Shown piece after piece: positions 11,220-23,229 of a stretch of DNA of 35,233 bases (positions are counted from its first letter, which is position 1; every line of letters starts with the position of its first letter). The notes under the pieces were generated by a model that saw only the letters and a list, made by a program, of their open reading frames with translations, was not told where the DNA came from and ran no database searches. Both the position numbers and the translations under genes were made by a program. This stretch comes from Planctomycetota bacterium (GTDB lineage Bacteria > Planctomycetota > JAKEIC01 > DYIT01), in NCBI GenBank assembly GCA_041308285.1, contig JBFZBV010000402.1, positions 1 through 35,233 of the forward strand. Reading direction: 5' to 3'.

Positions 11220-11237
11220 AAATCCCGCGTCACGGTG

Positions 11238-11274
11238 TTGACGGGAAGCGGGCTAATTGTGAAACTATTTTCAC
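11238..11274 (+). promoter_or_regulatory. Candidate promoter (TTGACG-17-GAAACT) overlapped by the palindrome GTGAAA-N4-TTTCAC, a possible ArsR operator
   Basis: TTGACG is at 11238..11243. The perfect 6-bp arms are at 11259..11264 and 11269..11274, just upstream of the ArsR gene. ArsR/SmtB operators are typically TGAA..TTCA-type inverted repeats. Confidence 0.35.
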
Positions 11275-11297
11275 TCAATCACATTAGAGAAGGGACC

Positions 11298-11663
11298 ATG
11301 AAGAAAGAGAATGAAATCCTCTATGAGATGAAGGTCGGAATCCTGAAGGCGCTGGCGAACGTCACCCGCCTGCGGATTGCCGAGTTCCTGCTCGACAGAG
11401 AGTCGTCGGTCAACGACATCGTCTCCGCCATGGGCATCGAGAGGACGGGCGTCTCGAAGCACCTCGCGTCCCTGCAGAAGGCGAACATCCTCAAAAGCAG
11501 GCGCGAGGGGACCACGGTCTTTTATTCCCTCAAGATACCGTGCATCCTGAACGTCTTCGGCTGCATAGAGGACGTTCTCAACGAGCAGGTCAGGGCGAAC
11601 ATGTCGCTTTACATGAGAATCGGGAAGCGGCGGAGCCGAGGGCGGATTGGGGCTGGGCGCTGA
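11298..11663 (+). CDS. ArsR/SmtB-family transcriptional regulator
   Basis: LKALANVTRLRIAEFLLDRESSVNDIVSAMGIERTGVSKHLASLQKANILKSRREGTTVFYSL. I chose the internal ATG at 11298. Confidence 0.8.
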   Translation: MKKENEILYEMKVGILKALANVTRLRIAEFLLDRESSVNDIVSAMGIERTGVSKHLASLQKANILKSRREGTTVFYSLKIPCILNVFGCIEDVLNEQVRANMSLYMRIGKRRSRGRIGAGR

Positions 11664-11665
11664 CC

Positions 11666-13210
11666 ATGGACTGGAAAGCCGAGTGGAAGAAGCTCGCGGC
11701 CATTGCCGCGCTGTTCCTGCTCTTCTTCTGGCTCCCCGTGGACAGCGCGCGCTTCACCGGGAGCCTGATGGAAGCCCTCCATCTCGCCCGCTGGTACGCC
11801 CGCGAGCACGTGCTTCTCTGCCTCGTGCCCGCCTTCTTCATCGCAGGGGCCATCGGCGTCTTCGTGAGCCAGGCTTCCGTGATGAAATACCTCGGGGCAG
11901 GGGCAAACAAGGTTCTTGCCTACGGCGTGGCGTCCGTTTCCGGATCAATCCTCGCCGTCTGTTCCTGCACCGTTCTCCCGCTCTTCGCCGGGATCTGGAA
12001 AATGGGCGCAGGACTCGGTCCCGCCTGCTCGTTCCTCTACTCCGGGCCGGCAATCAACATTCTCGCAATCATCCTCACCGCCCGCATTCTCGGCCTGGAC
12101 CTCGGCGTCGCGCGAGCGGTCGGCGCCATCGGGTTTTCGGTCGTCATCGGCTTGATCATGCATCTCTTCTTCCGGAAAGAGGAGGCAGCCAAGGCCCTGG
12201 TTCAGGCCGCGCTTCCGGAGCCGGAGGTTGAGCGTCCCCTGTGGAAGAACGCGGTCTTCTTCGCAGTGATGATTGGAGTGCTCGTGTTCGCCAACTGGGG
12301 GTCGCCGAACGATTTCATGTTCAATCTCGCAGGCGGACGGTATGTCCGGGCTGCCGTGATCGAGGCGCCCGAGGATCCCCTTGCGGCGGGATCGCGGTGG
12401 CGCATCGAGGCCCTGGAAGGCCCGGACGCAGGGAAGGAACTCGTTGTCGCGTCCTCGGAGATTGAGGGAAAGACGGCCTCGCCGGGCGTCTGGACGGCCG
12501 TCTGGAAGGCGAAGTGGGCCGTCACGGCCGCGTTTTCGGCGGCGCTCGGGCTGATTCTGTTCGCCTGGCTCGGCATGGCGTGGTGGAAGCTGCTCCTCGC
12601 GGCGGTCCCGGCCGCCGCTCTGGCGCTGCTTCTGCCTGGTTCGGGCCTTTGGGTCCTGATTCCCTTCGCCGCGGGCATCGTCGGGATCTCGACTGTACTC
12701 GCGTCGGACAAGGGCGAGGGCGGCGAGTGGTTCGGATCGACCTGGACCTTCGCCAGGCAAATCCTTCCCCTTCTCTTCGCAGGCGTCCTGGTGGCTGGAT
12801 TCCTGCTCGGCAGGCCCGGGCACGAAGGGCTGATTCCGGGAAAGTACGTGGAGATGCTCGTCGGCGACAGTCCCGACCGGTTTCTGGAAATCACGGCGCT
12901 GGGCGGCGGGGGCTTCGAGGGCTTCGCCCGGACGGTCTGGCCGTTCTGGACGAACTTCTTCGCAGCGGTCTTCGGCGCGTTCATGTACTTCGCGACGCTG
13001 ACCGAGGTCCCGATTCTCCAGGGGCTCATGGGCAGCGGCATGGGCAAGGGCCCTGCGCTCGCGCTCCTGCTCGCGGGCCCTGCGCTCTCGCTGCCCAACA
13101 TGCTTGTGATTCGGAGCATCATGGGCACGAAGAAGACCGTGGTCTTCATCCTGCTGGTGATTGTCATGGCGTGGATATCGGGACTGATCTTCGGATTAAT
13201 CGCAAGATAG
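11666..13210 (+). CDS. Permease of the COG0701/PF03773 (ArsP/DUF318) family, longer than usual
   Basis: Characteristic ...SILAVCSCTVLPLFAGIWKMGAGLGPACSFLYSGPAINI... and C-terminal ...GKGPALALLLAGPALSLPNMLVI.... It has many TM helices. The ATG at 11666 follows the ArsR stop. Confidence 0.75.
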   Translation: MDWKAEWKKLAAIAALFLLFFWLPVDSARFTGSLMEALHLARWYAREHVLLCLVPAFFIAGAIGVFVSQASVMKYLGAGANKVLAYGVASVSGSILAVCSCTVLPLFAGIWKMGAGLGPACSFLYSGPAINILAIILTARILGLDLGVARAVGAIGFSVVIGLIMHLFFRKEEAAKALVQAALPEPEVERPLWKNAVFFAVMIGVLVFANWGSPNDFMFNLAGGRYVRAAVIEAPEDPLAAGSRWRIEALEGPDAGKELVVASSEIEGKTASPGVWTAVWKAKWAVTAAFSAALGLILFAWLGMAWWKLLLAAVPAAALALLLPGSGLWVLIPFAAGIVGISTVLASDKGEGGEWFGSTWTFARQILPLLFAGVLVAGFLLGRPGHEGLIPGKYVEMLVGDSPDRFLEITALGGGGFEGFARTVWPFWTNFFAAVFGAFMYFATLTEVPILQGLMGSGMGKGPALALLLAGPALSLPNMLVIRSIMGTKKTVVFILLVIVMAWISGLIFGLIAR

Positions 13211-13366
13211 GAAAAACGTCAGATGCGGATCCCCCTCGCCCCGCGGAGCGGGGAGAGTGGGATGGAGGGAACGCCTGACGGGCTTTTGCCGCGGACGTTT
13301 TCCGGCGGCCGAGAAAAAAAGGGGACAGGTACCTTTAATCGGGAACATCAGGCGCAAGGAGGCGAA

Positions 13367-13603
13367 ATGATAAAGATCCAGATACTCGGCACCGGATGCC
13401 CCAAGTGCAGGAAACTCACCGAAAACGCCGAGGCGGCGGCCAAGGCTGTTGGCGTGGAGTACGAAATCGTAAAGGTGACCGACATCAACGAAATCATGAA
13501 ATTCGGCGTCATGATGACTCCCGCGCTCGCCGTGGACGGCCTAGTCAAGTCCGTGGGCAAGGTGCTATCCACCGAGGAAATCCGGAAGGCGCTATTGGGT
13601 TGA
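13367..13603 (+). CDS. Small thioredoxin-fold protein (redox-active disulfide protein 2 type, CPKC)
   Basis: 78 aa starting MIKIQILGTGCPKCRKL..., with AAGGAGG 5 nt upstream. The ArsR-permease-thioredoxin trio is a commonly seen neighbourhood. Confidence 0.85.
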   Translation: MIKIQILGTGCPKCRKLTENAEAAAKAVGVEYEIVKVTDINEIMKFGVMMTPALAVDGLVKSVGKVLSTEEIRKALLG

Positions 13604-13690
13604 TACGCCCCTCCGTTCAGGATTTTTAAAGGGCTCGACGACGCCCCCGCGGGGGCGACCGAGATTCCAATGGAAGGCAAAGGAGAAACG

Positions 13691-14023
13691 ATGAGTAAGT
13701 TGCTGCCATTGTTGTCGGTGCTCCTGTTCGCTTCATGCGGAGTGAAGGCGTCCGCCCCTGCGCAGCCGCCCGGGAAGCCGGGCGGGGACGTGTGCCCGCC
13801 CTTCTTCCTCAAGGACGAGGCCGGCAACGTCATCAATCCCGTGACCGGAGAGAACATCGACAAGCCGTACAGCCCCCGCAAGACCTGCGGGGAATGCCAC
13901 GATTACGACCTCGTCGTCGAGGGCTTCCACTTCCAGCAGGGAAGGGGCGAGCCGGTGACAAAGGAACTCGCTGAACGCTACGCATGGGTCACAGGGCCAG
14001 GGCAGTACGGCGGCAGGTGGTGA
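13691..14023 (+). CDS. Multihaem cytochrome c, N-terminal segment (lipoprotein signal peptide plus first CxxCH), ending at in-frame TGA 14021
   Basis: AGGAG RBS, signal peptide MSKLLPLLSVLLFASC and CGECH. It is in the same reading frame as the downstream ORF. Confidence 0.8.
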   Translation: MSKLLPLLSVLLFASCGVKASAPAQPPGKPGGDVCPPFFLKDEAGNVINPVTGENIDKPYSPRKTCGECHDYDLVVEGFHFQQGRGEPVTKELAERYAWVTGPGQYGGRW

Positions 14024-14057
14024 ACGCCCGCCCCGAATTTTCGCCAGTTGGCGAAAA
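14021..14057 (+). promoter_or_regulatory. In-frame UGA plus a SECIS-like hairpin (TTTTCGCC-AGTT-GGCGAAAA)
   Basis: Perfect 8-bp stem 14038..14045 / 14050..14057 with a 4-nt loop AGTT, 14 nt after the TGA. It has the same architecture as 22622..22657. Confidence 0.5.
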
Positions 14058-16219
14058 AGAGCAATGCGAGCGCCCTTTCCGTGGATTTGACCTCCTACGA
14101 TTTCATGACCCAGGATTGCGGCGCCTGCCATCCCGGCGGAGGGCCGGCCGAACTCGACCGCAACGGCAAACGTTATGACCTGCATGCCGCCGACCCCGCC
14201 AACAACATCAAAGGCGGGGCTGACAACGGCTTCGACGGAGACTACTACAAGGCGAAATGGGCCGAGTCCGGCGTCATTGAGGCCGACTGCCTCCTGTGCC
14301 ACCTTCCCGGCTACGACAAGAAGTCCAGGGAGGCCCAGCGTGCGAACCTCAATTACCGGTGGGCTGCTTCGGCAGGCGCGGGCTTTGCGAAAATCACGGG
14401 CGCCGTCAAGAACGGGGAGAATCTGTGCATCCAGTACGACAAGGCCCGCTTCGACGAAAAAGGCTGCCTGAAACATCAAATCGCCCCGGAACCAGGCACA
14501 TCCGTGTGCTTGTGGTGCCACGGCGAGACCGACTGGAAGAAAAAGGGCGAAGTCTACGAGCCTCGCAAGGACGTGCATCTAAATGCGGGCCTGCGCTGCG
14601 TGGATTGCCACCCCGCGGGATCGAGGGCCGCGGACGAACGCATCAACAAGCCCGGAATGCACCAGTTCGCAAAGGGCGACGACCCGGGATCGCTGGTCCG
14701 CGACGACCTCGATGACACCATGGAAGGGTGCCAGGGGTGCCACGAGACGCGCAAACACGGTGCACCCCTGCCCAAGCATGCCGGCCTTCCGCCCGATCAC
14801 CTCGAGACCATCTCGTGCCAGGCCTGCCACATCCCCTGGCGGTACGGGCAGAGCGTGCTCGTGCACGACAGCACGGCCGACAACCCCCTGCCGCGCCATC
14901 CGGCCACCGGAAAGAAAATCTGGACTTTCTACGGCCAGAACCTGCGGCCGTGGAATTTTTACGGGGAAAAGGATTTCTTCGGCGCTCAGAACCAGCCGAC
15001 CGATCGCTTCAGGCCTCAGCTCGCCCGTTACAAGGGGAAGATCTACCCGGTCAACCGAGTTTATTCGCTGTGGGTCGGCATCGAGGAGCAGGGCAAACCG
15101 CTCGACATGGTCTGGATGCAGGACCTGCGCGGCATGTGGGCTTCTTTCGAAAAAGACCCTGCGTCTTTCCCCGAGCTTCAGAAGCTGAAGGACGACAACG
15201 GCGACGGCGTGACGGAAATAAACAGCCCTGAGGAAATAGAAGCGATTATCAAATCCGTGACAGCATGGCTCGAGTCGAAGAAGAAGCCGATGGACGGCAA
15301 GGGAATCGTTTTCGTGGACGGGACGAAGGTGCACAGGTCGGGCACGGAATCGTACGAGGTCGAGGCCCTGCCGCACGAGTACACCCCGTATGCCTCGTCC
15401 TTCAAATACTCCCACGGCGTGCAGCCCGCAGGCGCGGCGCTCGGAAGCGGCGGATGCACTGACTGCCATTCCGGCGGCTCGCACTTTTTCTTCCAGGCCG
15501 TGATGCAGCGGCCTTTCGGCGCGGACGCAAAACTGCAGTGGCAGGCCCAGTACGAACTCCTGGGGATATCGGGAAGCATGGCCGAGCTCGGCGCGTTCAG
15601 GGAGGAGACGCTCAAACCCGCGTCTTTCTTCCTGACCCTGCTGGCAGGAGCCATGGCCCTGATCTGGGTCTTGTCCGAGTTGATCCTGACCGCCGGATTC
15701 TTCGGCTCGACTGCCGGGGCCTCGACTCCGGCCGCAGTCCCCGGGCGCTTGCGCGCCGTGCAGGGCGTGATCCTCATGGCCCTCCTTCTGTCGGTAGTCG
15801 CGCTTTTCAGCAACGCCGCCATGCTGGAATACGTGACGGTTTCGCAGCGCTTCCTCAATTCCACCCACGCCGCTTTCGCGGGCCTTTCCCTGCTCCTTGC
15901 AATGGCGGCCATGTCCAGGATTGGCGTGTTCCGCGGGAAATCCGGCGGCGTCCTGGTCCTGGATCCGGTCATACGCGTCATTCTTGCCGCCGGCATACTC
16001 GCGATCGCGATCGGTGGCGGGACCATGTTCCTTAAATCCGGATTCAGGGTCGTGTTCCCCTTTGCCGGGTGGGTGCGTTTCTCCTACACGCTTTTCGACG
16101 CGGGCGTGTTCGCGGCCCTTTCGGGGATAGTCCTTTTCCTGGGCCGTGCAACGTGGCTGCTGCCCGTGAAACTCGCGGCCGCGCCGCAGGCGGATTCGAA
16201 TAAGGAGACGACAATTTAA
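14024..16219 (+). CDS. Multihaem cytochrome c continuation (7 CxxCH) fused to a C-terminal domain of about 5 TM helices. The conventional ORF call would start at TTG 14048.
   Basis: CGACH, CLLCH, CLWCH, CVDCH, CQGCH, CQACH and CTDCH, with hydrophobic helices from ~15610 onward. It has no signal peptide, ATG or RBS of its own. Confidence 0.8.
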   Translation, partial: TPAPNFRQLAKKSNASALSVDLTSYDFMTQDCGACHPGGGPAELDRNGKRYDLHAADPANNIKGGADNGFDGDYYKAKWAESGVIEADCLLCHLPGYDKKSREAQRANLNYRWAASAGAGFAKITGAVKNGENLCIQYDKARFDEKGCLKHQIAPEPGTSVCLWCHGETDWKKKGEVYEPRKDVHLNAGLRCVDCHPAGSRAADERINKPGMHQFAKGDDPGSLVRDDLDDTMEGCQGCHETRKHGAPLPKHAGLPPDHLETISCQACHIPWRYGQSVLVHDSTADNPLPRHPATGKKIWTFYGQNLRPWNFYGEKDFFGAQNQPTDRFRPQLARYKGKIYPVNRVYSLWVGIEEQGKPLDMVWMQDLRGMWASFEKDPASFPELQKLKDDNGDGVTEINSPEEIEAIIKSVTAWLESKKKPMDGKGIVFVDGTKVHRSGTESYEVEALPHEYTPYASSFKYSHGVQPAGAALGSGGCTDCHSGGSHFFFQAVMQRPFGADAKLQWQAQYELLGISGSMAELGAFREETLKPASFFLTLLAGAMALIWVLSELILTAGFFGSTAGASTPAAVPGRLRAVQGVILMALLLSVVALFSNAAMLEYVTVSQRFLNSTHAAFAGLSLLLAMAAMSRIGVFRGKSGGVLVLDPVIRVILAAGILAIAIGGGTMFLKSGFRVVFPFAGWVRFSYTLFDAGVFAALSGIVLFLGRATWLLPVKLAAAPQADSNKETTI

Positions 16220-16384: not shown

Positions 16385-16774
16385 ATGACCGAGAAAGAAG
16401 GATGCCTGTGTTCCGGCGGTCCCAAGATTATCTTCCCGTGTTCCGGCGCGGCCGACGTGGGGGCCATCGCCGACCTCGCCGCCCGCAAGCTGAACAAGGA
16501 GGGGGCGGGAAAGATGTACTGCCTCGCCAGCGTCGGCGGCCGCGTTGCCGGGATCCTCAAGACGACGGAGGCCGCCTCGCTCATCCTCGCCATCGACGGC
16601 TGCCCCCTCGAGTGCGCGAAGCACACGCTCGAACAGGCCGGCTTCAAGAACTACTCGCACATACAGGTGACCGCCCTCGGGCTGGAAAAGGGGAAGTCCC
16701 CGGCGACTGACGAGAACGTGAACCGGGTCGCAGGCAAGGCTCGGGAGCTGCTGAAACAGGGAGTCTGCTCGTGA
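16385..16774 (+). CDS. DGC-domain (PF08859-like) putative zinc-binding protein
   Basis: 129 aa with FPCSGAADVG...AIDGCPLEC motifs. GAGGAG lies upstream of the ATG at 16385. Confidence 0.7.
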   Translation: MTEKEGCLCSGGPKIIFPCSGAADVGAIADLAARKLNKEGAGKMYCLASVGGRVAGILKTTEAASLILAIDGCPLECAKHTLEQAGFKNYSHIQVTALGLEKGKSPATDENVNRVAGKARELLKQGVCS

Positions 16775-16936: not shown

Positions 16937-17256
16937 ATGCTCGACTTGGCCTATCTGGGCTCGCGGATGAAGGAAATCCTCGGCCTTTCCACCGAACCCT
17001 TCGCCTTGTGCCCGCTGAAGGACGCTCCCGCGGCGCCCGACGTCGTCGTGGTCGAAGGGCCGCCAGAATCCTTGATGTGGCTCGCTCTGGCTGACCTGAA
17101 TCTGGAGGGAGGAATGCGCCTGCGCGCCGACACTGCAGTGTTGCAGGCGACCTGCGAGAAAAGGTTCTCGTCGAACAAATGGGGCTGGACTCCAAGATAT
17201 CGAGCCCGGTGACGCTGGCCCTGAGCACTCCCCAGGGGAAAATCGTGGGTTCATAA
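16937..17256 (+). pseudogene. DUF169-like remnant (internally deleted and frameshifted)
   Basis: MKEILGLSTEPFAL is N-terminus-like and joins directly to PDVVVVEGPPESLMWLALA, which is mid-domain-like. A second frame continues DLREKVLVEQMGLDSKISSPVTLALSTPQGKIVGS* to 17256. Confidence 0.35.
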
Positions 17257-17841: not shown

Positions 17842-18693
17842 GAAAAGGGGACAGGAGTCTATATACATCTCAAGCCCTGAGACATGAGAATGTTATAGAA
17901 TCATTTCAACATGATATACGACGAGGTGGACTGAAAAAAGCAGGCGGATTCTCAGTGCTTGCCTTTGGGTCTTCCTCGATCGCGCAGCGAATATTCTAGA
18001 TTATATCGGTAGGCCGTTCGGCGCATCCAAGCCGAATCTCCGAAGGGCCTTCCTCGTAGCACGCAGGTCCTGATGGATTCGAGTTCCATCTCGGTTTGAG
18101 GGTGATTGACTTTCCGAACCCAGTGTTTCATTTGGATTTCGACCGGCCAATCTGACAACAACGATTTTTCATCGGGCGACCCCGACATCCTGCAACCAAG
18201 GCTGGACCACCGCCAATCCTCAGCGCGATCTACGAGCCCGGCCCGAAGCGGATTCCGCTCTACGTAGCTGGCGACCGTGAGGAAGCTCTCGCCGCTTTGC
18301 ACAGGGAAAGCTTTGAAGCGCGCTTGATAAATGTGGCCCAGGCCTGACGTGCCCCGGAACGCATGCAGGCGCTGGGCGTGGGTCACCGTCAACCAATGAA
18401 GATATTGCGATAGTGTTCTGCCCTGGCGCGGCCCTGGACGCAACACCATGTGCCAGTGATTCGGCATGATGCAGTACGCAAGCATGGGAATAGGGTGCTT
18501 CTCCTGGGCTTGGCGAAGAATCCTGATGAAGGCGTCATAGTCCGCCCCATCCTCGAAAAGCGGGGATCTGTTGTTCGCACGGTTGAGTACGTGATAAATC
18601 ACCCCGCCCGCGATGAACCTGGCAGTCCTTGGCATTACGTAACTATAAAAGAATCCTAGTGAAAGGGCAATGAATGATTCCTGTCCCCTTTTC
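17842..18693 (-). mobile_element. RAYT/IS200-like Y1 transposase unit bounded by 18-bp inverted repeats
   Basis: GAAAAGGGGACAGGAGTC at 17842..17859 matches the reverse complement of 18676..18693 (GAAAAGGGGACAGGAATC) at 17/18 positions. Confidence 0.6.
17952..18635 (-). CDS. REP-associated tyrosine transposase-like protein (Y1_Tnp / IS200 family)
   Basis: HUH motif MPNHWHMV, catalytic-Tyr region SYVERNPLRAGLV, and the W..WSS motif typical of RAYTs. I chose the ATG at 18635 (MPRTARFIAGGVIYHVLNR...). Confidence 0.8.
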   Translation of the reverse strand: MPRTARFIAGGVIYHVLNRANNRSPLFEDGADYDAFIRILRQAQEKHPIPMLAYCIMPNHWHMVLRPGPRQGRTLSQYLHWLTVTHAQRLHAFRGTSGLGHIYQARFKAFPVQSGESFLTVASYVERNPLRAGLVDRAEDWRWSSLGCRMSGSPDEKSLLSDWPVEIQMKHWVRKVNHPQTEMELESIRTCVLRGRPFGDSAWMRRTAYRYNLEYSLRDRGRPKGKH

Positions 18694-18713
18694 ACCGCGA
18701 ACCGTGAAATCCC

Positions 18714-18762
18714 TTGCTGATCTTCTTGCATCCGCTATAATTCGCTTGTTGGCGAACTATAG
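18714..18762 (+). promoter_or_regulatory. Candidate ars promoter (TTGCTG-16-TATAAT) with an overlapping inverted repeat CTATAATTCGC-N6-GCGAACTATAG
   Basis: A perfect TATAAT at 18736..18741 lies inside 11-bp arms with 1 mismatch (18735..18745 / 18752..18762), 15 nt upstream of arsR. Confidence 0.4.
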
Positions 18763-19158: not shown

Positions 19159-20010
19159 ATGGGCAAGGGCTGCTGCGGTCCGTCCGGTGATCCTGTAAGG
19201 AAAGTCGTTAGGGAAGCCTACGGCGGCATAGCCCGCGGGTCGGGTTCCTGCTGCGGGCCGTCCAGGCCGTGCTGCGGATCGGCGGCCGCCGACAAACTCG
19301 CCCGCGGAGTCGGCTACGGGGAAGGCGAGCTCGCAGCGCTGCCGGAAGGCGCGAACCTCGGGCTGTCCTGCGGGAACCCGACGGCTATAGCCTCCCTTCG
19401 CGAAGGGGAGACCGTGCTCGACCTCGGATCGGGCTCCGGATTCGACGCGTTCATTGCGGCGCGCAAGGTGGGCCCCAAGGGCCGCGTCATCGGCGTTGAC
19501 ATGACGCCGGAGATGATTGACAGGGCGAGGAAGAACATCTCCGGATTCCGCTCCAAGAGCGGCCTGGACAACGTGGAATTCAGGCTGGGCGAGATAGAGA
19601 ACCTGCCAGCCGCCGACTGCTCGGCGGACGTGGTGCTGTCCAACTGCGTCATCAATCTCTCGCCGGAAAAGCAGCGCGTCTGGGCGGAGGCATACCGCGT
19701 GCTCAAGCCCGGCGGCCGCGTGGCCGTGTCCGACATGGCCCTGCTCAAGCCGCTTCCCGGGGATTTCCAACGTTCGGTGGAAGCCCTGGTCGGATGCGTG
19801 TCCGGCGCGGTCCTCGTCGAGGAGACCCGGCGCATGCTGGAAACCGCCGGCTTCTCTGAAATCAGGCTCGTCTCGAAGCCCGAGAGCATCGACGCCATGT
19901 CCGACTGGAGCGACCCGGTCTACAGGAGCATTCAGGCCCTGGTCGGGCCGTCGGGCCGCATGAGCGACTGGGTGACGAGCCTCGAGATTTCAGCGAGAAA
20001 ACCGCTTTAG
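19159..20010 (+). CDS. arsM: Arsenite S-adenosylmethionine methyltransferase
   Basis: N-terminal Cys pairs (GKGCCG, GSCCG), [10 protein letters not shown], the SAM motif [35 protein letters not shown] and [11 protein letters not shown] match ArsM throughout. Confidence 0.9.
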
Positions 20011-20021
20011 AAAACCGGCAG

Positions 20022-21212
20022 ATGAAAGAACCTGGAACAGACGGCAAGGGCCTGGGCTTCTTCGAGCGCTGGCTGACGGTCTGGGTGGGGCTCTGCATCG
20101 TCGGGGGCATCGTCCTGGGCAAGGTGGCCCCGCAGGCCGCCACGGCGCTCGACGGCATGGCCATCTATATCGGCGAGGCGCCCGTGGTGTCCATCCCCAT
20201 CGCAGTCTGCCTCTTCTTCATGATGTATCCCATCATGGTGAAGATAGACTTCGCCGAGGTACTGAAAGCGGGCAAGTCGGTCAAACCGGTCGGTCTGACC
20301 CTGTTCGTCAACTGGGCAATCAAGCCCTTCACTATGTACGCCATCTCGATTTTCTTTCTCGGGACGCTGTTCCTGGCCTTCATCGGGCCCGACGCCGTGG
20401 ACCTGGTCAAGATGCCACTGGGGCTCGACCTGGCGGTCGGCGCGAAGCACGGAGACGGCATCGTGGTCCTGCACGAGGGCGTCAAGATGCTCCAGATCCC
20501 CCTGTGGCGGAGCTATCTTGCGGGCTGCATCCTCCTCGGCATCGCCCCCTGCACTGCAATGGTCCTCGTCTGGGGATACCTCGCCCGCGGGAACGACGGG
20601 CACACTCTCGTCATGGTCGCCATCAACTCGCTGACCATGCTCTTCCTCTACGGCCCGCTGGGCGGATTCCTTCTCGGCGTGGGAAAGCTCCCCGTGCCCT
20701 GGCAGGCGCTTGTGCTCTCAATCGGAATCTACGTTGCTCTGCCGCTCGCGGCTGGGTTCATGACGCGGAAAATGATCCTCCGGGCCAAAGGCGAGGCGTG
20801 GTTCAAGGAGCGGTTCCTCCATCTTCTTACTCCGATTACGATAAGCGCTTTGCTGGCCACGCTCATGCTCCTGTTTTCCTTCAAGGGAGACGTCATCCTG
20901 GGAAACCCTCTGACCATACTCTGGATTGCCGTTCCGCTGCTCCTGCAGACCGCGCTGATCTTCGCCCTGGGGTACGTCCTGTCGAGAATCCTGAGGTTCT
21001 CCTATGAGGATGCCGCCCCATCTGCCATGATAGGCGCGTCGAACCATTTCGAAGTCGCCATCGCGACGGCTGTGATGCTTTTCGGACTGAGGTCCGGCGC
21101 CTCCCTGGCGACGGTCGTGGGAGTCCTCATCGAGGTCCCGGTCATGCTGATGCTCGTGAAGATTTGCATGGCCACCAGGGGCTGGTTCGCGGCCCGGGAA
21201 GGGGCGGCGTGA
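20022..21212 (+). CDS. acr3: ACR3-family arsenite efflux permease
   Basis: [23 protein letters not shown]... and the conserved [12 protein letters not shown]. There are about 10 TM helices. Confidence 0.9.
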
Positions 21213-21733
21213 AAAGCTCTCCGTGCGGACTCGTGTTCAACAGGCAGTGCGGACCCGGTTTGCTCGCATTCGCGCTCGCCGCTTCCGCCCTTCTCGCCCC
21301 GGCGGGATGCGCGGACAAGCCCGCAGGCGCTCCTGCCGGCACGCAGGAAAAGCAGACGGACGGGGCGGAGACGCCGGAGCCGGCCCCAGCCCGGAAGCCA
21401 GGGCCGCCCGCCTGCTCGTCGTGCCACGAGTCCCAGTGCAGGCTGTGGGCCTATGGCGGACACGTGGAGGTCGAGTGCGCGGCCTGCCACGGCGAACCCG
21501 GCAGGCACGTCCTGGAAGACGCGGACCCGCGGCCCAGGATGAAGACCGGCGGCAGGGAACTGTGCATGGATTGCCACGATCTCGCAGGGGAAAAGGACGG
21601 GAAAGACCTGACTCCGGACGAGCGCACCGAGAATCACATGCTCTTCCTCGAGAAGAAGCACGTAATCAGGATAAACCGGCTGAAGGTAGGAGGCAGGTGC
21701 ATACACTGCCACGACCCTCACCTCGGGAGATGA
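21209..21733 (+). CDS. Tetrahaem c-type cytochrome lipoprotein
   Basis: The GTG start overlaps the acr3 stop (GTGA). Lipobox LLAPAGC and four CxxCH motifs (CSSCH, CAACH, CMDCH, CIHCH). Confidence 0.75.
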
Positions 21734-21745
21734 AAGGAGTGGAAC

Positions 21746-22624
21746 ATGAATTCGCGAAAACTGCGCTGGGCCCATGCGGCCGCGGTATTGGCGTGCGCAA
21801 TCGCGCTCGCGTCCGGCTGCGGGGACGGGGCTGCGCCCCCCAAGCCGCCTGAAAACGAGGGAAGCTCCGCCGGAGCGGAAGCCAAGACGCCCGCCGGCGC
21901 CGGCTCGGCCCAGGCCGTGCTCGTCGCTGAAGGCAGGGAGGCGTACAAGTCATGCGGGATGTGCCACAGCGAGACCGACCCGAAGATCACCTGGGACGAG
22001 GACTGGGTGCTCCTCAACGAAAAGACCACGTGCATCGAATCAGGCGCTCCTGCGCCGCGGGTCAGGAAGGCGATAATGGCCTATCTCCGCGCGCCGGATA
22101 TCCTGCGGCCCGTCCTCGTCGGCGCGGACTGGAAGCCCCCGGCCGGGATGAAGACCGGGAAGATTACGATCCCGGCAATCGGGGGCAGCGCTTATCTCAA
22201 GGCCGAGCGCGAATCGATAAAGGAGGGCGCGCCGCCCATGGTCAGGCTTTACTGGGGCGAGGGCGGCGATGTGAAACAGCTGACCGCCCCTGCCGGCGAA
22301 TACACGGTCATCAACTACTGGCTCTACAAGCGGGGCGGTAAAGACGGCGGGGAACGATGGTCGGCAAGCTGCACGAACGTTGACGGATGCCAGAACCTCT
22401 CCATCGCCGAGGGAGAGGAATGCGTGTTCCAGACCGACCCCATCCTCAGGGGATCCTTCGACGTCCAGAAGACCGAGGGGAAGATCGCCCTGTCCTTCGC
22501 CCTATACGACATAGGCGGGAACCGCGTGACGCTTTCCAGGAACGGGAGAATAGTATTCCCCGCCTTTTCCGTGTTCGACGGCGGGGATCGCGAACTCGCA
22601 AAAGGCGAATTCGGGGTCTCCTGA
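21746..22624 (+). CDS. Monohaem (CGMCH) lipoprotein with a C-terminal beta-rich domain. The ORF stays open in frame past TGA 22622 to TAG 22753.
   Basis: AAGGAG RBS, lipobox ALASGC and one CxxCH. The 42 codons after the TGA have about 79% GC at third positions, which is coding-like. Confidence 0.7.
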   Translation: MNSRKLRWAHAAAVLACAIALASGCGDGAAPPKPPENEGSSAGAEAKTPAGAGSAQAVLVAEGREAYKSCGMCHSETDPKITWDEDWVLLNEKTTCIESGAPAPRVRKAIMAYLRAPDILRPVLVGADWKPPAGMKTGKITIPAIGGSAYLKAERESIKEGAPPMVRLYWGEGGDVKQLTAPAGEYTVINYWLYKRGGKDGGERWSASCTNVDGCQNLSIAEGEECVFQTDPILRGSFDVQKTEGKIALSFALYDIGGNRVTLSRNGRIVFPAFSVFDGGDRELAKGEFGVS

Positions 22625-22657
22625 GGGGCTTTCACCGCGGACTGGAGTTCCAGTCCG
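22622..22657 (+). promoter_or_regulatory. In-frame UGA plus a SECIS-like hairpin (CGGACTGG-AGTT-CCAGTCCG)
   Basis: Perfect 8-bp stem 22638..22645 / 22650..22657 with loop AGTT, 13 nt after the TGA. Confidence 0.45.
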
Positions 22658-22904
22658 GAAGTCATGAAGGGGGACCTGCAGGCGAGACTGGAATTCGACT
22701 CGGGACCTTTCAAGGCGGAGTGCGTGTCGGTCATTGACCTGCCCGGGGAGTAGGAGCGCGTCAATAGGCCGGACTGTTTCCGGCTGTTCGGCATCCGTAC
22801 GCGGCTCTGCCCCCGGACAGAGGGATGCGAATGCCCCGAGCGGGGTCGAGGGACTTCGCCGGTAGATGCCGCCATGGCAGCCTGTCAAGTCACGTTATCT
22901 ATCA

Positions 22905-22927
22905 GGCGGTTCGCGAACCGCCCCTAC
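22905..22927 (-). repeat. REP-like unit: GTAG followed by the perfect 18-nt palindrome GGCGGTTCGCGAACCGCC
   Basis: The palindrome is at 22905..22922. The minus strand reads GTAGGGGCGGTTCGCGAACCGCC. Confidence 0.45.
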
Positions 22928-22955
22928 GCGATGAAGCCCCGATGGGCACCCCGTT

Positions 22956-22992
22956 TTTTTCCGTCCGCAATGGTCGCGAGCGGGCGGAAAAA
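22956..22992. repeat. 13-bp stem hairpin (TTTTTCCGTCCGC / GCGGGCGGAAAAA) with an 11-nt loop
   Basis: Seen directly, with one G-U pair. The T-run is 5' and the A-run is 3' of the stem, so it is not a canonical terminator on either strand. Confidence 0.5.
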
Positions 22993-23077
22993 TGGAGCGG
23001 ATAGAGCAGCAAGCAGAAAGGACAGCACATCCTCTCCGCGATCTACCTTCAACTCTCTATTTTCAAAAAGAAAGCCT

Positions 23078-23123
23078 CTGCGGTACAGCCCCCGGAGAAG
23101 AGTCAAATGCCAAGCCGAAGGCT
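23078..23123 (+). repeat. Direct repeat unit 1 (CTGCGGTACAGCC..CGGAGAAGAGTCAA...CAAGCCGAAGGCT)
   Basis: About 85% identical to 23183..23229. The internal arms AGCCCCCGG / CCGAAGGCT have 2 mismatches. Confidence 0.6.
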
Positions 23124-23182: not shown

Positions 23183-23229
23183 CTGCGGTACAGCCTTCGG
23201 AGAAGAGTCAATTGGTCAAGCCGAAGGCT
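23183..23229 (+). repeat. Direct repeat unit 2, with a perfect 9-bp internal stem AGCCTTCGG / CCGAAGGCT and a 20-nt loop
   Basis: Seen directly. It lies 105 nt downstream of unit 1 and ends ~55 nt upstream of the next start codon. Confidence 0.6.

Follow-up and report, generated by a model that had tools for sequence, protein, structure and literature searches.

The 35,233-nucleotide (nt) stretch of contig JBFZBV010000402.1 from a Planctomycetota bacterium (assembly GCA_041308285.1), here called the window, raises the question of whether a UGA codon at position 14021 ends a short cytochrome gene or lies within a much longer one. A reading of this DNA made from its sequence only had proposed that an exported octahaem cytochrome is interrupted by this in-frame UGA, which would be decoded as selenocysteine (Sec), or otherwise read through in a programmed way, with the help of a downstream hairpin resembling a selenocysteine insertion sequence (SECIS) element. 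We followed up this proposal by comparing the locus with homologous proteins and nucleotide sequences and find that positions 13691 to 16219 are almost certainly one gene of 842 residues whose UGA is read as Sec. Comparative sequence data establish that this is a single gene, that its family has a Sec/Cys column, that the hairpin is conserved at the RNA level, that UGA is an ordinary stop codon elsewhere in the window and that the family shares synteny with arsenic resistance (ars) genes. The explanation that best covers the whole, in which one gene with Sec at UGA 14021 encodes a predicted haem-chalcogen enzyme, is in our judgment very probable.

The reading frame across UGA 14021 and its homologues

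The open reading frame (ORF) at 13691 to 14023 begins with the signal peptide MSKLLPLLSVLLFASC, continues into the first CxxCH haem attachment motif and ends at TGA 14021. The next ORF is in the same frame, and the 8 codons between the TGA and the first possible restart, a TTG at 14048, are open. When both ORFs were read through TGA 14021 to give the joined protein used throughout this work, the frame remained free of stops until the TAA at 16217-16219 and yielded a product of 842 amino acids (aa) with eight CxxCH motifs (C66, C143, C200, C273, C303, C347, C376 and C589), one of them before the TGA and seven beyond it. Neither a signal peptide nor an ATG start is present in the downstream half, and the C-terminal third of the joined protein is hydrophobic. 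The features of the two ORFs listed in the sequence-only reading were all found again when the sequence was checked, as was the octahaem-membrane fusion of about 842 aa that it proposed; its estimate of about five transmembrane helices agrees with the five to six long C-terminal helices predicted in an AlphaFold2 model of a homologue (P0053). It had also called the signal peptide that of a lipoprotein. The signal peptide itself was supported by the translation and by the homologues, all of which open with a hydrophobic signal peptide, whereas the lipobox (LFAS-C) is a by-eye reading only, and many of the homologues carry an ordinary signal peptide and not a lipobox. In the public record of the contig, the octahaem gene appears as a 712-aa product with an internal start (P0001, 14081-16219), and it is therefore currently mis-annotated as a shorter product.

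A search with the joined protein returned 1342 homologues. The 119 full-length homologues listed were all single polypeptides of 790 to 860 aa that covered 72 to 98% of the query, and their alignment with it was continuous across the UGA, from residue 34 to approximately residue 830. Each of these 119 proteins has Cys at the UGA column, within the motif GGxW-C-SPAP that corresponds to GGRW-UGA-TPAP in the window, and the column was also invariant in a 72-sequence alignment. In the 731 intact codons downstream of the TGA, all of the family-invariant residues are in place.

These alignments bear directly on the alternative that the locus holds two genes, a 110-aa monohaem lipoprotein followed by a 723-aa heptahaem membrane protein that starts at TTG 14048 or at a later GTG, with the hairpin serving as an intercistronic regulatory or terminator-like element. 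An ORF from TTG 14048 does exist, and the public annotation likewise starts its product internally. However, the Cys-type homologues are all single polypeptides, so the two separate genes that might have been expected among homologues were not seen, and the 8 codons between the TGA and the TTG encode residues that the family conserves (TPAPNFRQ, aligned with SPAPLYRQ). The attachment of c-type haem requires export, and yet the second of the two supposed proteins would have no signal peptide. The hairpin, moreover, is embedded in conserved coding sequence and lacks a U-tract. We therefore consider a two-gene arrangement extremely improbable.

Genome and metagenome contigs were then scanned and the matching loci translated. 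The UGA column was occupied by TGT or TGC in 31 loci and by an in-frame TGA at exactly this position in 56 loci (16 from genomes and 40 from metagenomes). Thus, the homologue alignment that had been called for, in which Cys or Sec should stand opposite the UGA, gave Cys in every full-length homologue listed and TGA in 56 other loci. All but one of the 56 TGA-type loci formed one clade (here called the delta clade) with approximately 33% identity to the window protein, the genome representatives of which came from metagenome-assembled genomes (MAGs) of Desulfobacterales and Desulfatiglandales. The delta-clade proteins are soluble and approximately 624 aa long, and the complete ones keep eight CxxCH motifs across the TGA. 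The remaining TGA-type locus, L049 from a metagenome, is the closest relative of the window protein (55% identity) and reads DYGGRW-TGA-SPGP. Most of the other close relatives (45 to 54% identity) are Cys-type. One delta-clade sequence (L034, identical to L097) contains, besides the Sec TGA, an in-frame TAG at the Trp of YYKSNW that truncates it to 183 aa; this copy is a pseudogene or a sequencing error.

In a midpoint-rooted neighbor-joining tree, which is a rough one, the window protein and L049 were basal and fell between the all-Sec delta clade and a Cys-type crown. Since these two are basal in the tree and the SECIS core is common to both, the sequences suggest that Sec was ancestral and was later replaced by Cys in this family. 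A Sec-to-Cys replacement has also been reported for MccSep, a multihaem cytochrome c selenoprotein (PMC13510729).

The hairpin, a second UGA gene and the case for recoding

The hairpin TTTTCGCC-AGTT-GGCGAAAA begins 14 nt after TGA 14021, and its loop begins 22 nt after the UGA. Its 10-nt core GCCAGUUGGC (14043-14052), which reads GCC-AGUU-GGC, was invariant and at the same distance from the UGA in 39 of 39 distinct TGA-type sequences. The core codons, +7 to +9, showed no synonymous variation: Ser was encoded by AGC in 37 of 37 cases, and CAG and TTG were each present in 39 of 39. Ser codons neighboring the core were TCN, versus AGC within it, and the flanking Pro, Ser, Asp, Ala, Arg, Lys, Val and Asn codons used two to five synonyms each. 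TTG makes up only 4.4% of the Leu codons in the genes of the window. The Cys-type genes that encode the same Q-L pair (n = 9) used CAA or CAG followed by CTT, CTC or CTG, never TTG (0/9), and no hairpin folds at this place in them. Within the stem, the three apical base pairs never varied, and three further pairs changed on both sides; the two pairs in the middle are open as an internal loop in delta-clade sequences and are Watson-Crick paired in the window and in L039.

An exhaustive scan of the plus strand of the window found four perfect hairpins with at least 8 bp and a 4-nt loop, compared to approximately 0.9 expected from mononucleotide shuffling. Only two of the four have an AGTT loop, and each of these directly follows an in-frame TGA. 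A scan of every TGA followed by a hairpin in the window yielded no further candidate in the frame of a real gene, and Rfam found no family in the window. The claims made earlier about the hairpins, which were that an 8-bp AGTT hairpin lies 14 nt after TGA 14021, that TGA 22622 has the same design with a 13-nt spacer, that the window holds no other hairpin of this type and that the two loops fall in different codon phases (CAG-TTG versus TGG-AGT-TCC), were all confirmed, and the second hairpin gained support from covariation as well.

This second site consists of TGA 22622-22624, followed after the 13-nt spacer by CGGACTGG-AGTT-CCAGTCCG, and the frame beyond the TGA is open for 42 codons, to a TAG at 22751-22753. 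The product of the gene, a putative lipoprotein with a single haem motif, matched no Pfam or NCBIfam family. All 19 of its homologous proteins end at the UGA column, as does the publicly recorded product of the gene itself (P0121, 292 aa, 21746-22624). In each of the 8 distinct sequenced loci, there is a TGA that opens a conserved in-frame tail, U-G-[AS]-F-T-x-D-W followed by G-P-F-[KE], and then a stop. The hairpin loops at these loci were AGUU, GGUC, CGUC and CGUGA, with the G-U always kept; GGUC, found in some of the relatives, is also the loop of the E. coli fdhF element. Compensatory double changes occurred in five of the eight stem pairs, with 91% of cells paired, a result reached by none of 500 shuffles. 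An independent Logan assembly (contig L048) was identical to positions 20746-23034 of the window, the site 2 TGA included. Run SRR28346263 yields an assembled stretch that is identical to the window. When a profile was run against 1.84 billion representative proteins, 210 hits (clusters at 50% identity) were obtained; almost all end at profile positions 289-293, and a remote member of the set (L131) also has the TGA and a conserved tail containing G-P-F-[KE]. These sequence comparisons indicate that the set is probably an unannotated selenoprotein superfamily. The evidence from site 2 thus indicates that the organism reads a UGA followed by a hairpin at a second, unrelated gene.

TGA ends 13 of the 18 Pfam-supported genes in the window and is their commonest stop codon, and both putative Sec genes end in TAA or TAG. 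A global reassignment of UGA was rejected on these grounds, and the recoding is therefore local and not a change of the genetic code. The criteria used by bSECISearch place the apical loop approximately 16 to 37 nt from the UGA and have it contain G/U. The loops at both sites, which begin at 22 nt (site 1) and 21 nt (site 2), fit these criteria. The two hairpins are also like the canonical bacterial SECIS element of the E. coli fdhF type in that they lie directly 3' of the UGA within coding sequence and carry G-U in an apical loop approximately 20 nt from it. Unlike the E. coli element, they have no bulged U and are simple tetraloop hairpins, and SelB would be their predicted binding partner. 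Taken together, the Cys column, the TGA-type loci, the conservation of the hairpin at the RNA level and site 2 support the proposed Sec or programmed readthrough, and these sequence data make the use of Sec, or at least SECIS-dependent recoding, at UGA 14021 highly probable. All of the refuting conditions named in the sequence-only reading that could be checked turned out in favor of its interpretation.

Several observations weigh against this conclusion. TGA 14021 is one base away from a Cys codon, and no second record of it turned up when P0001 and the 110-aa and 117-aa N-terminal ORFs were looked up for exact matches. The window contains no tRNA, and none of its ORFs that were scanned is selA, selB or selD. 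The delta-clade hairpin has a 2x2 internal loop, and since the core is invariant, few covarying pairs were counted at site 1. Folding of the 50-nt stretches gave modest z-scores (-2.2 at site 1 and -1.9 at site 2); it is therefore position and comparative data, not thermodynamics, that carry the case. In the related contig L043, an AIRS-domain gene was considered as a SelD candidate and rejected, as it reads as HypE-like with an HGGGG motif.

As an alternative, TGA 14021 could result from faulty assembly or sequencing or from a nonsense mutation that recently changed TGC or TGT, in which case the gene would be an ordinary Cys-type gene or a fresh pseudogene. Its distance of one base from a Cys codon and the lack of a second record in the look-ups fit this explanation, as do the prevalence of Cys-type genes among the close relatives and the occurrence of damaged copies in MAGs, such as L034 with its additional TAG. 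Such an error or mutation, however, would not create a perfect 8-bp AGUU hairpin at the canonical distance, built on the rare TTG codon. The hairpin never occurs in Cys-type genes, and the same combination of TGA and hairpin is present in the closest relative, L049. In addition, the contig carries another gene with a UGA and a hairpin, which was confirmed in an independent assembly, and the 731 downstream codons are intact and keep all of the family-invariant residues. An error or fresh mutation is accordingly very improbable in our assessment.

A further alternative accepts hairpin-driven recoding and differs only in the residue inserted, which could be Cys delivered by a SelB-dependent Cys-tRNA(UCA) or a near-cognate Trp or Cys. 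Insertion of Cys at UGA in a SelB- and SECIS-dependent way is reported to take place in some bacteria (Mukai et al. 2016), and the inserted amino acid cannot be read from sequence alone. Against this, Sec has as its standard signature a column of UGA and Cys together with a SECIS-like hairpin, and both sites, as well as the homologues, retain G-U in the loop. Such a signature has been experimentally proven for an analogous multihaem cytochrome (PMC13510729), and the TGA-type clade belongs to the Desulfobacterota, a phylum with proven Sec users such as Geobacter sulfurreducens (PMC13510729). Recoding with a residue other than Sec therefore receives only a small probability from us.

If UGA 14021 is read as Sec, the hairpin at 14038-14057 would act as a bacterial SECIS element, its apical AGUU loop holding the complex of SelB, GTP and Sec-tRNA(Sec) while the UGA is in the ribosomal A site, and Sec would be inserted co-translationally in place of termination. 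The 842-aa product would then be exported by way of its N-terminal signal peptide and loaded with eight c-type haems in the periplasm, and its C-terminal helical domain would hold it in the inner membrane. This mechanism of recoding is an already known one; what is new is the family.

Known cytochromes, the arsenic neighborhood and predicted function

Three cytochrome families are listed as selenoproteins in a 2026 review: MccSep/ExtKL, GSU2204 and OTR (PMC13188914). Against NCBIfam, the octahaem protein had no hit to NF040886 (ExtKL/MccSep) or to NF041027 (GSU2204) at E <= 0.001. Membership in MccSep/ExtKL was rejected, as neither NF040886 nor phmmer nor a profile search gave a match, and membership in the GSU2204 family was rejected for want of an NF041027 match. 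The OTR model TIGR04315, which has a cut-off of 375 bits, scored the window protein at 26.7 bits, L030 (a delta-clade member) at 35.7 bits and L049 at 37.6 bits, and membership in OTR was rejected on this score. The earlier remark that this was not a recognized canonical selenoprotein family was thus correct, in that the protein matched no NCBIfam selenoprotein model. Pfam found only generic multihaem domains in it.

The best-studied counterpart is MccSep (ExtKL, GSU2937-2936) of G. sulfurreducens, a multihaem cytochrome c selenoprotein with polysulfide reductase activity (PMC13510729). Like the window protein as predicted here, it is a periplasmic multihaem cytochrome whose gene is annotated as two ORFs split by a UGA with a SECIS-like hairpin just 3' of it, and its family likewise has both Sec-type and Cys-type members (PMC13510729). 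Its essential Sec lies beside a haem ligated by a second conserved Cys (PMC13510729), an arrangement to which the Cys or His at residue 35 of the window family may, by analogy, be comparable. The two proteins nevertheless show no detectable sequence relationship. MccSep is a soluble tetramer of approximately 49-kDa subunits with five haems and has its Sec325 on a C-terminal Ig-like domain (PMC13510729), whereas the window protein has eight haem motifs, Sec111 between motifs 1 and 2, and a C-terminal membrane domain. The genomic context also differs, being arsenic in the window and sulfur for MccSep. OTR (TIGR04315; PDB 1SP3), which has GenBank-annotated Sec members (PMC13188914), shares the eight CxxCH motifs and a weak similarity of 27 to 38 bits over the central haem motifs. 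Unlike the window protein, it is soluble and approximately 440 aa long, and the N-terminal region of the window protein that holds the Sec/Cys column has no match in OTR.

Because Sec111 replaces a Cys that is invariant in the family, the alignments indicate that it is a functional residue, catalytic or a ligand, and not a passenger. The invariant potential ligands across both clades are H80, H296, H324, H363, H370, H575, K284 and C/U111, and His726 is invariant in the 72-sequence ars-type alignment. At residue 35 (13793-13795), all 45 ars-type sequences have Cys and all 8 delta-clade sequences have His. Exchange between Cys and His is typical of positions that ligate a haem axially or bind a metal, and the swap at residue 35 is, as far as the alignment can tell, the pattern expected of such a ligand. 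As a putative axial haem ligand, the conserved non-motif Cys at this position recalls the His/Cys-ligated haem enzymes of sulfur metabolism TsdA and SoxAX (PMC13510729), which have no sequence relationship to the window protein. If Se ligated a haem iron here, this would, as far as is known, be the first natural His/Sec haem.

The genes around the octahaem cytochrome point to arsenic. The ars proteins of the window were compared by tblastn to all of the fetched loci, and ars genes flanked the Cys-type homologue in 15 of the 17 genome loci, which came from Sumerlaeota, Planctomycetota, Ignavibacteria, Bacteroidota and Oligoflexia. Among the carriers of Cys-type homologues, one locus bears the label Ignavibacterium album, and others are Bacteroidota and Bryobacterales. 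In 9 of these 15 loci, an ArsP-like gene, an ArsE gene or both stood directly upstream of the cytochrome gene. The recurrent order in Cys-type loci is ArsR, ArsP-like permease, ArsE thioredoxin and cytochrome, sometimes with a DGC gene next. The octahaem gene thus belongs to a cluster that is headed by ArsR and whose synteny is kept across taxa, as is characteristic of ars operon genes. The literature searched contained no description of an octahaem cytochrome as an ars gene or of an active-site Cys in OTR.

Since ars synteny recurs with the Cys-type homologues, the clade of the window protein can be predicted to act on arsenic. It would be a periplasmic haem-chalcogen oxidoreductase in which a selenolate or thiolate binds or attacks an arsenic species and the haem chain passes electrons to the membrane or takes them from it; we put forward this arsenic role only tentatively, as unlikely in absolute terms. 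Doubtful, and in need of still more caution, is the wider proposal that the GGxW-[C/U]-SPAP octahaem proteins are a previously unrecognized class of periplasmic arsenic oxidoreductases carried in the ars operons of several phyla. Proteins of such a class would combine the haem chain with a Cys or Sec nucleophile and with Cys35 as a haem or arsenic ligand, in a mechanistic parallel to MccSep, and would be candidates for the missing reductase of arsenate (or methylarsenate) that works independently of Arr, or for an enzyme that oxidizes As(III)/MAs(III) anaerobically. The window's copy would then be a rare Sec-boosted, membrane-anchored version.

A number of results count against these functional predictions. 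None of the delta-clade loci matched any ars query in the tblastn comparison; with this Sec-rich clade outside any ars context, the family as a whole cannot have arsenic as its substrate. No quinone or haem-b signature is recognizable in the membrane domain. The AlphaFold2 model of the Cys-type homologue P0053 had a mean predicted local distance difference test (pLDDT) score of 79.8, with low confidence around both key Cys residues; a Foldseek comparison of this model to the Protein Data Bank (PDB) gave nothing below E = 1, and phmmer and profile searches of PDB sequences found no related solved structure. The membrane domain also had no Pfam match, and a homologue search with it returned nothing. 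The neighbors of the delta-clade gene L030 (a DUF1638 protein, a sigma-54 PAS regulator, TetR and HlyD) were uninformative.

It is also quite possible, although we rate the chance as short of even, that the recoding is real and has no link to arsenic, and that the protein is a general periplasmic electron-transfer enzyme or one acting on sulfur compounds (polysulfide, tetrathionate or thiosulfate, like MccSep, OTR or TsdA) that is simply carried on a metal-resistance island. The lack of ars neighbors in the TGA-type delta clade favors such an enzyme, and the sole weak similarity detected is to the OTR tetrathionate reductase family. The characterized haem-Sec enzyme, moreover, uses polysulfide and selenite and was inactive with arsenite (PMC13510729). 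On the other side stand the synteny with ArsR, ArsP-like, ArsE and DGC genes, which recurs in five groups, with ars flanks in nearly all of the genome loci, and the difference between the ars-linked and delta clades at a position of ligand type (Cys35 in the former, His35 in the latter).

The features of the octahaem gene, the second putative Sec gene and their neighbors are collected in Table 1. The window's island runs in the order ArsR, ABC transporter, ECF sigma factor and RND efflux system; then ArsR, ArsP_1-type permease, ArsE-family thioredoxin, octahaem gene and DGC protein; and finally DUF169 fragment, IS200 transposase, ArsM, Acr3, small cytochrome and second Sec gene. ArsM, Acr3, the ArsP-like permease and two ArsR genes are therefore present, and arsC was not found among the window ORFs tested. 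The DUF169 fragment (16937-17212), which covers only profile positions 109-163, adjoins an IS200/Y1 transposase on the minus strand (17952-18731), and an insertion sequence seems to interrupt the ars island. The second Sec gene also follows Acr3 in L043, L044 and L127. Synteny with L043, together with the PSCyt2/PSD1 genes in L045, points to an origin of the window in Planctomycetota. A homologue of the small cytochrome stands just upstream of the second gene's homologue in the flanks examined (L043-L048, L129 and L130), and for this reason the small cytochrome and the product of the second Sec gene are probably partners, as judged from gene order. In the intergenic region after the second Sec gene there is a 32-nt direct repeat (23078-23109 and 23183-23214, 91% identical and 105 nt apart), and CAAGCCGAAGGCT follows each copy.

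Table 1. Positions of the octahaem gene, the second putative Sec gene and neighboring features in the window
Feature	Position	Strand	Basis
ArsR/SmtB-family repressor, operon head	11235..11663	+	NCBIfam NF033788
ArsP_1-type permease, true start probably downstream of 11540	11540..13210	+	Pfam PF03773, E = 1.6e-61; synteny with Cys-type homologues
MTH895/ArsE-family thioredoxin-like protein, immediately upstream of the cytochrome gene	13223..13603	+	TIGR00412, 103 bits; conserved synteny
Shine-Dalgarno sequence AGGAG	13681..13685	+	5' of ATG 13691; direct reading of the sequence
Signal peptide, possible lipobox (MSKLLPLLSVLLFAS-C)	13691..13738	+	Translation; lipobox by eye only
N-terminal coding part, residues 1-110, with invariant Cys35 (GVCPPF) and haem motif 1 (C66-H70)	13691..14020	+	
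UGA, putative Sec, residue 111, motif GGRW-U-TPAP	14021..14023	+	Aligns with invariant Cys and with in-frame TGA in 56 other loci
Downstream coding part, residues 112-842 and TAA stop, haem motifs 2-8	14024..16219	+	
SECIS-type hairpin, 8-bp stem, apical loop AGUU (14046-14049)	14038..14057	+	Scan and comparison
C-terminal membrane domain, approximately residues 644-842, 5-6 predicted helices	15620..16216	+	Translation; helices in AlphaFold2 model of homologue P0053
DGC-domain Cys-rich protein, immediately downstream	16385..16774	+	Pfam PF08859; synteny in L001, L002, L006, L011, L055
ArsM arsenite methyltransferase	19159-20010	+	NF008823, 315 bits
ACR3 arsenite efflux pump	20022-21212	+	TIGR00832, 378 bits
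Small c-type cytochrome, 174 aa, paired CxxCH	21209..21733	+	Pfam PF09699; overlaps Acr3 stop codon
Second selenoprotein gene (putative), lipoprotein monohaem cytochrome (C70-H74), 335 aa, Sec293 at TGA 22622-22624, 42-aa tail to TAG	21746..22753	+	
Site 2 SECIS-type hairpin, 8-bp stem, AGUU loop starting 21 nt after UGA	22638..22657	+	

Implications for selenoproteins and arsenic biology

The octahaem, ars-linked cytochromes with a conserved Sec/Cys are a family absent from current selenoprotein catalogues, and the same contig carries what its sequence identifies as a second, unannotated Sec family. The octahaem family has at least 1342 homologues and at least 57 TGA-type loci, the window included. 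The set to which the second gene belongs is even larger, with its 210 clusters at 50% identity and products that nearly all stop at the same column. Both of the window's putative Sec genes are publicly annotated as truncated proteins.

MccSep, which was posted in 2025 and published in 2026, is the only haem-selenocysteine enzyme characterized (PMC13510729). Because two further, unrelated cytochrome families with a conserved Sec are now added, haem-chalcogen catalysis may be more widespread than was known, as these families suggest. Some organisms are reported to respire arsenate while lacking arr genes (PMC4432346, PMC9751042). Within ars operons, the Cys-type octahaem gene, as yet unnamed, turns up repeatedly beside an ArsP-like permease and an ArsE thioredoxin, and because of this recurrence the octahaem gene would be a concrete candidate for periplasmic arsenic redox chemistry.

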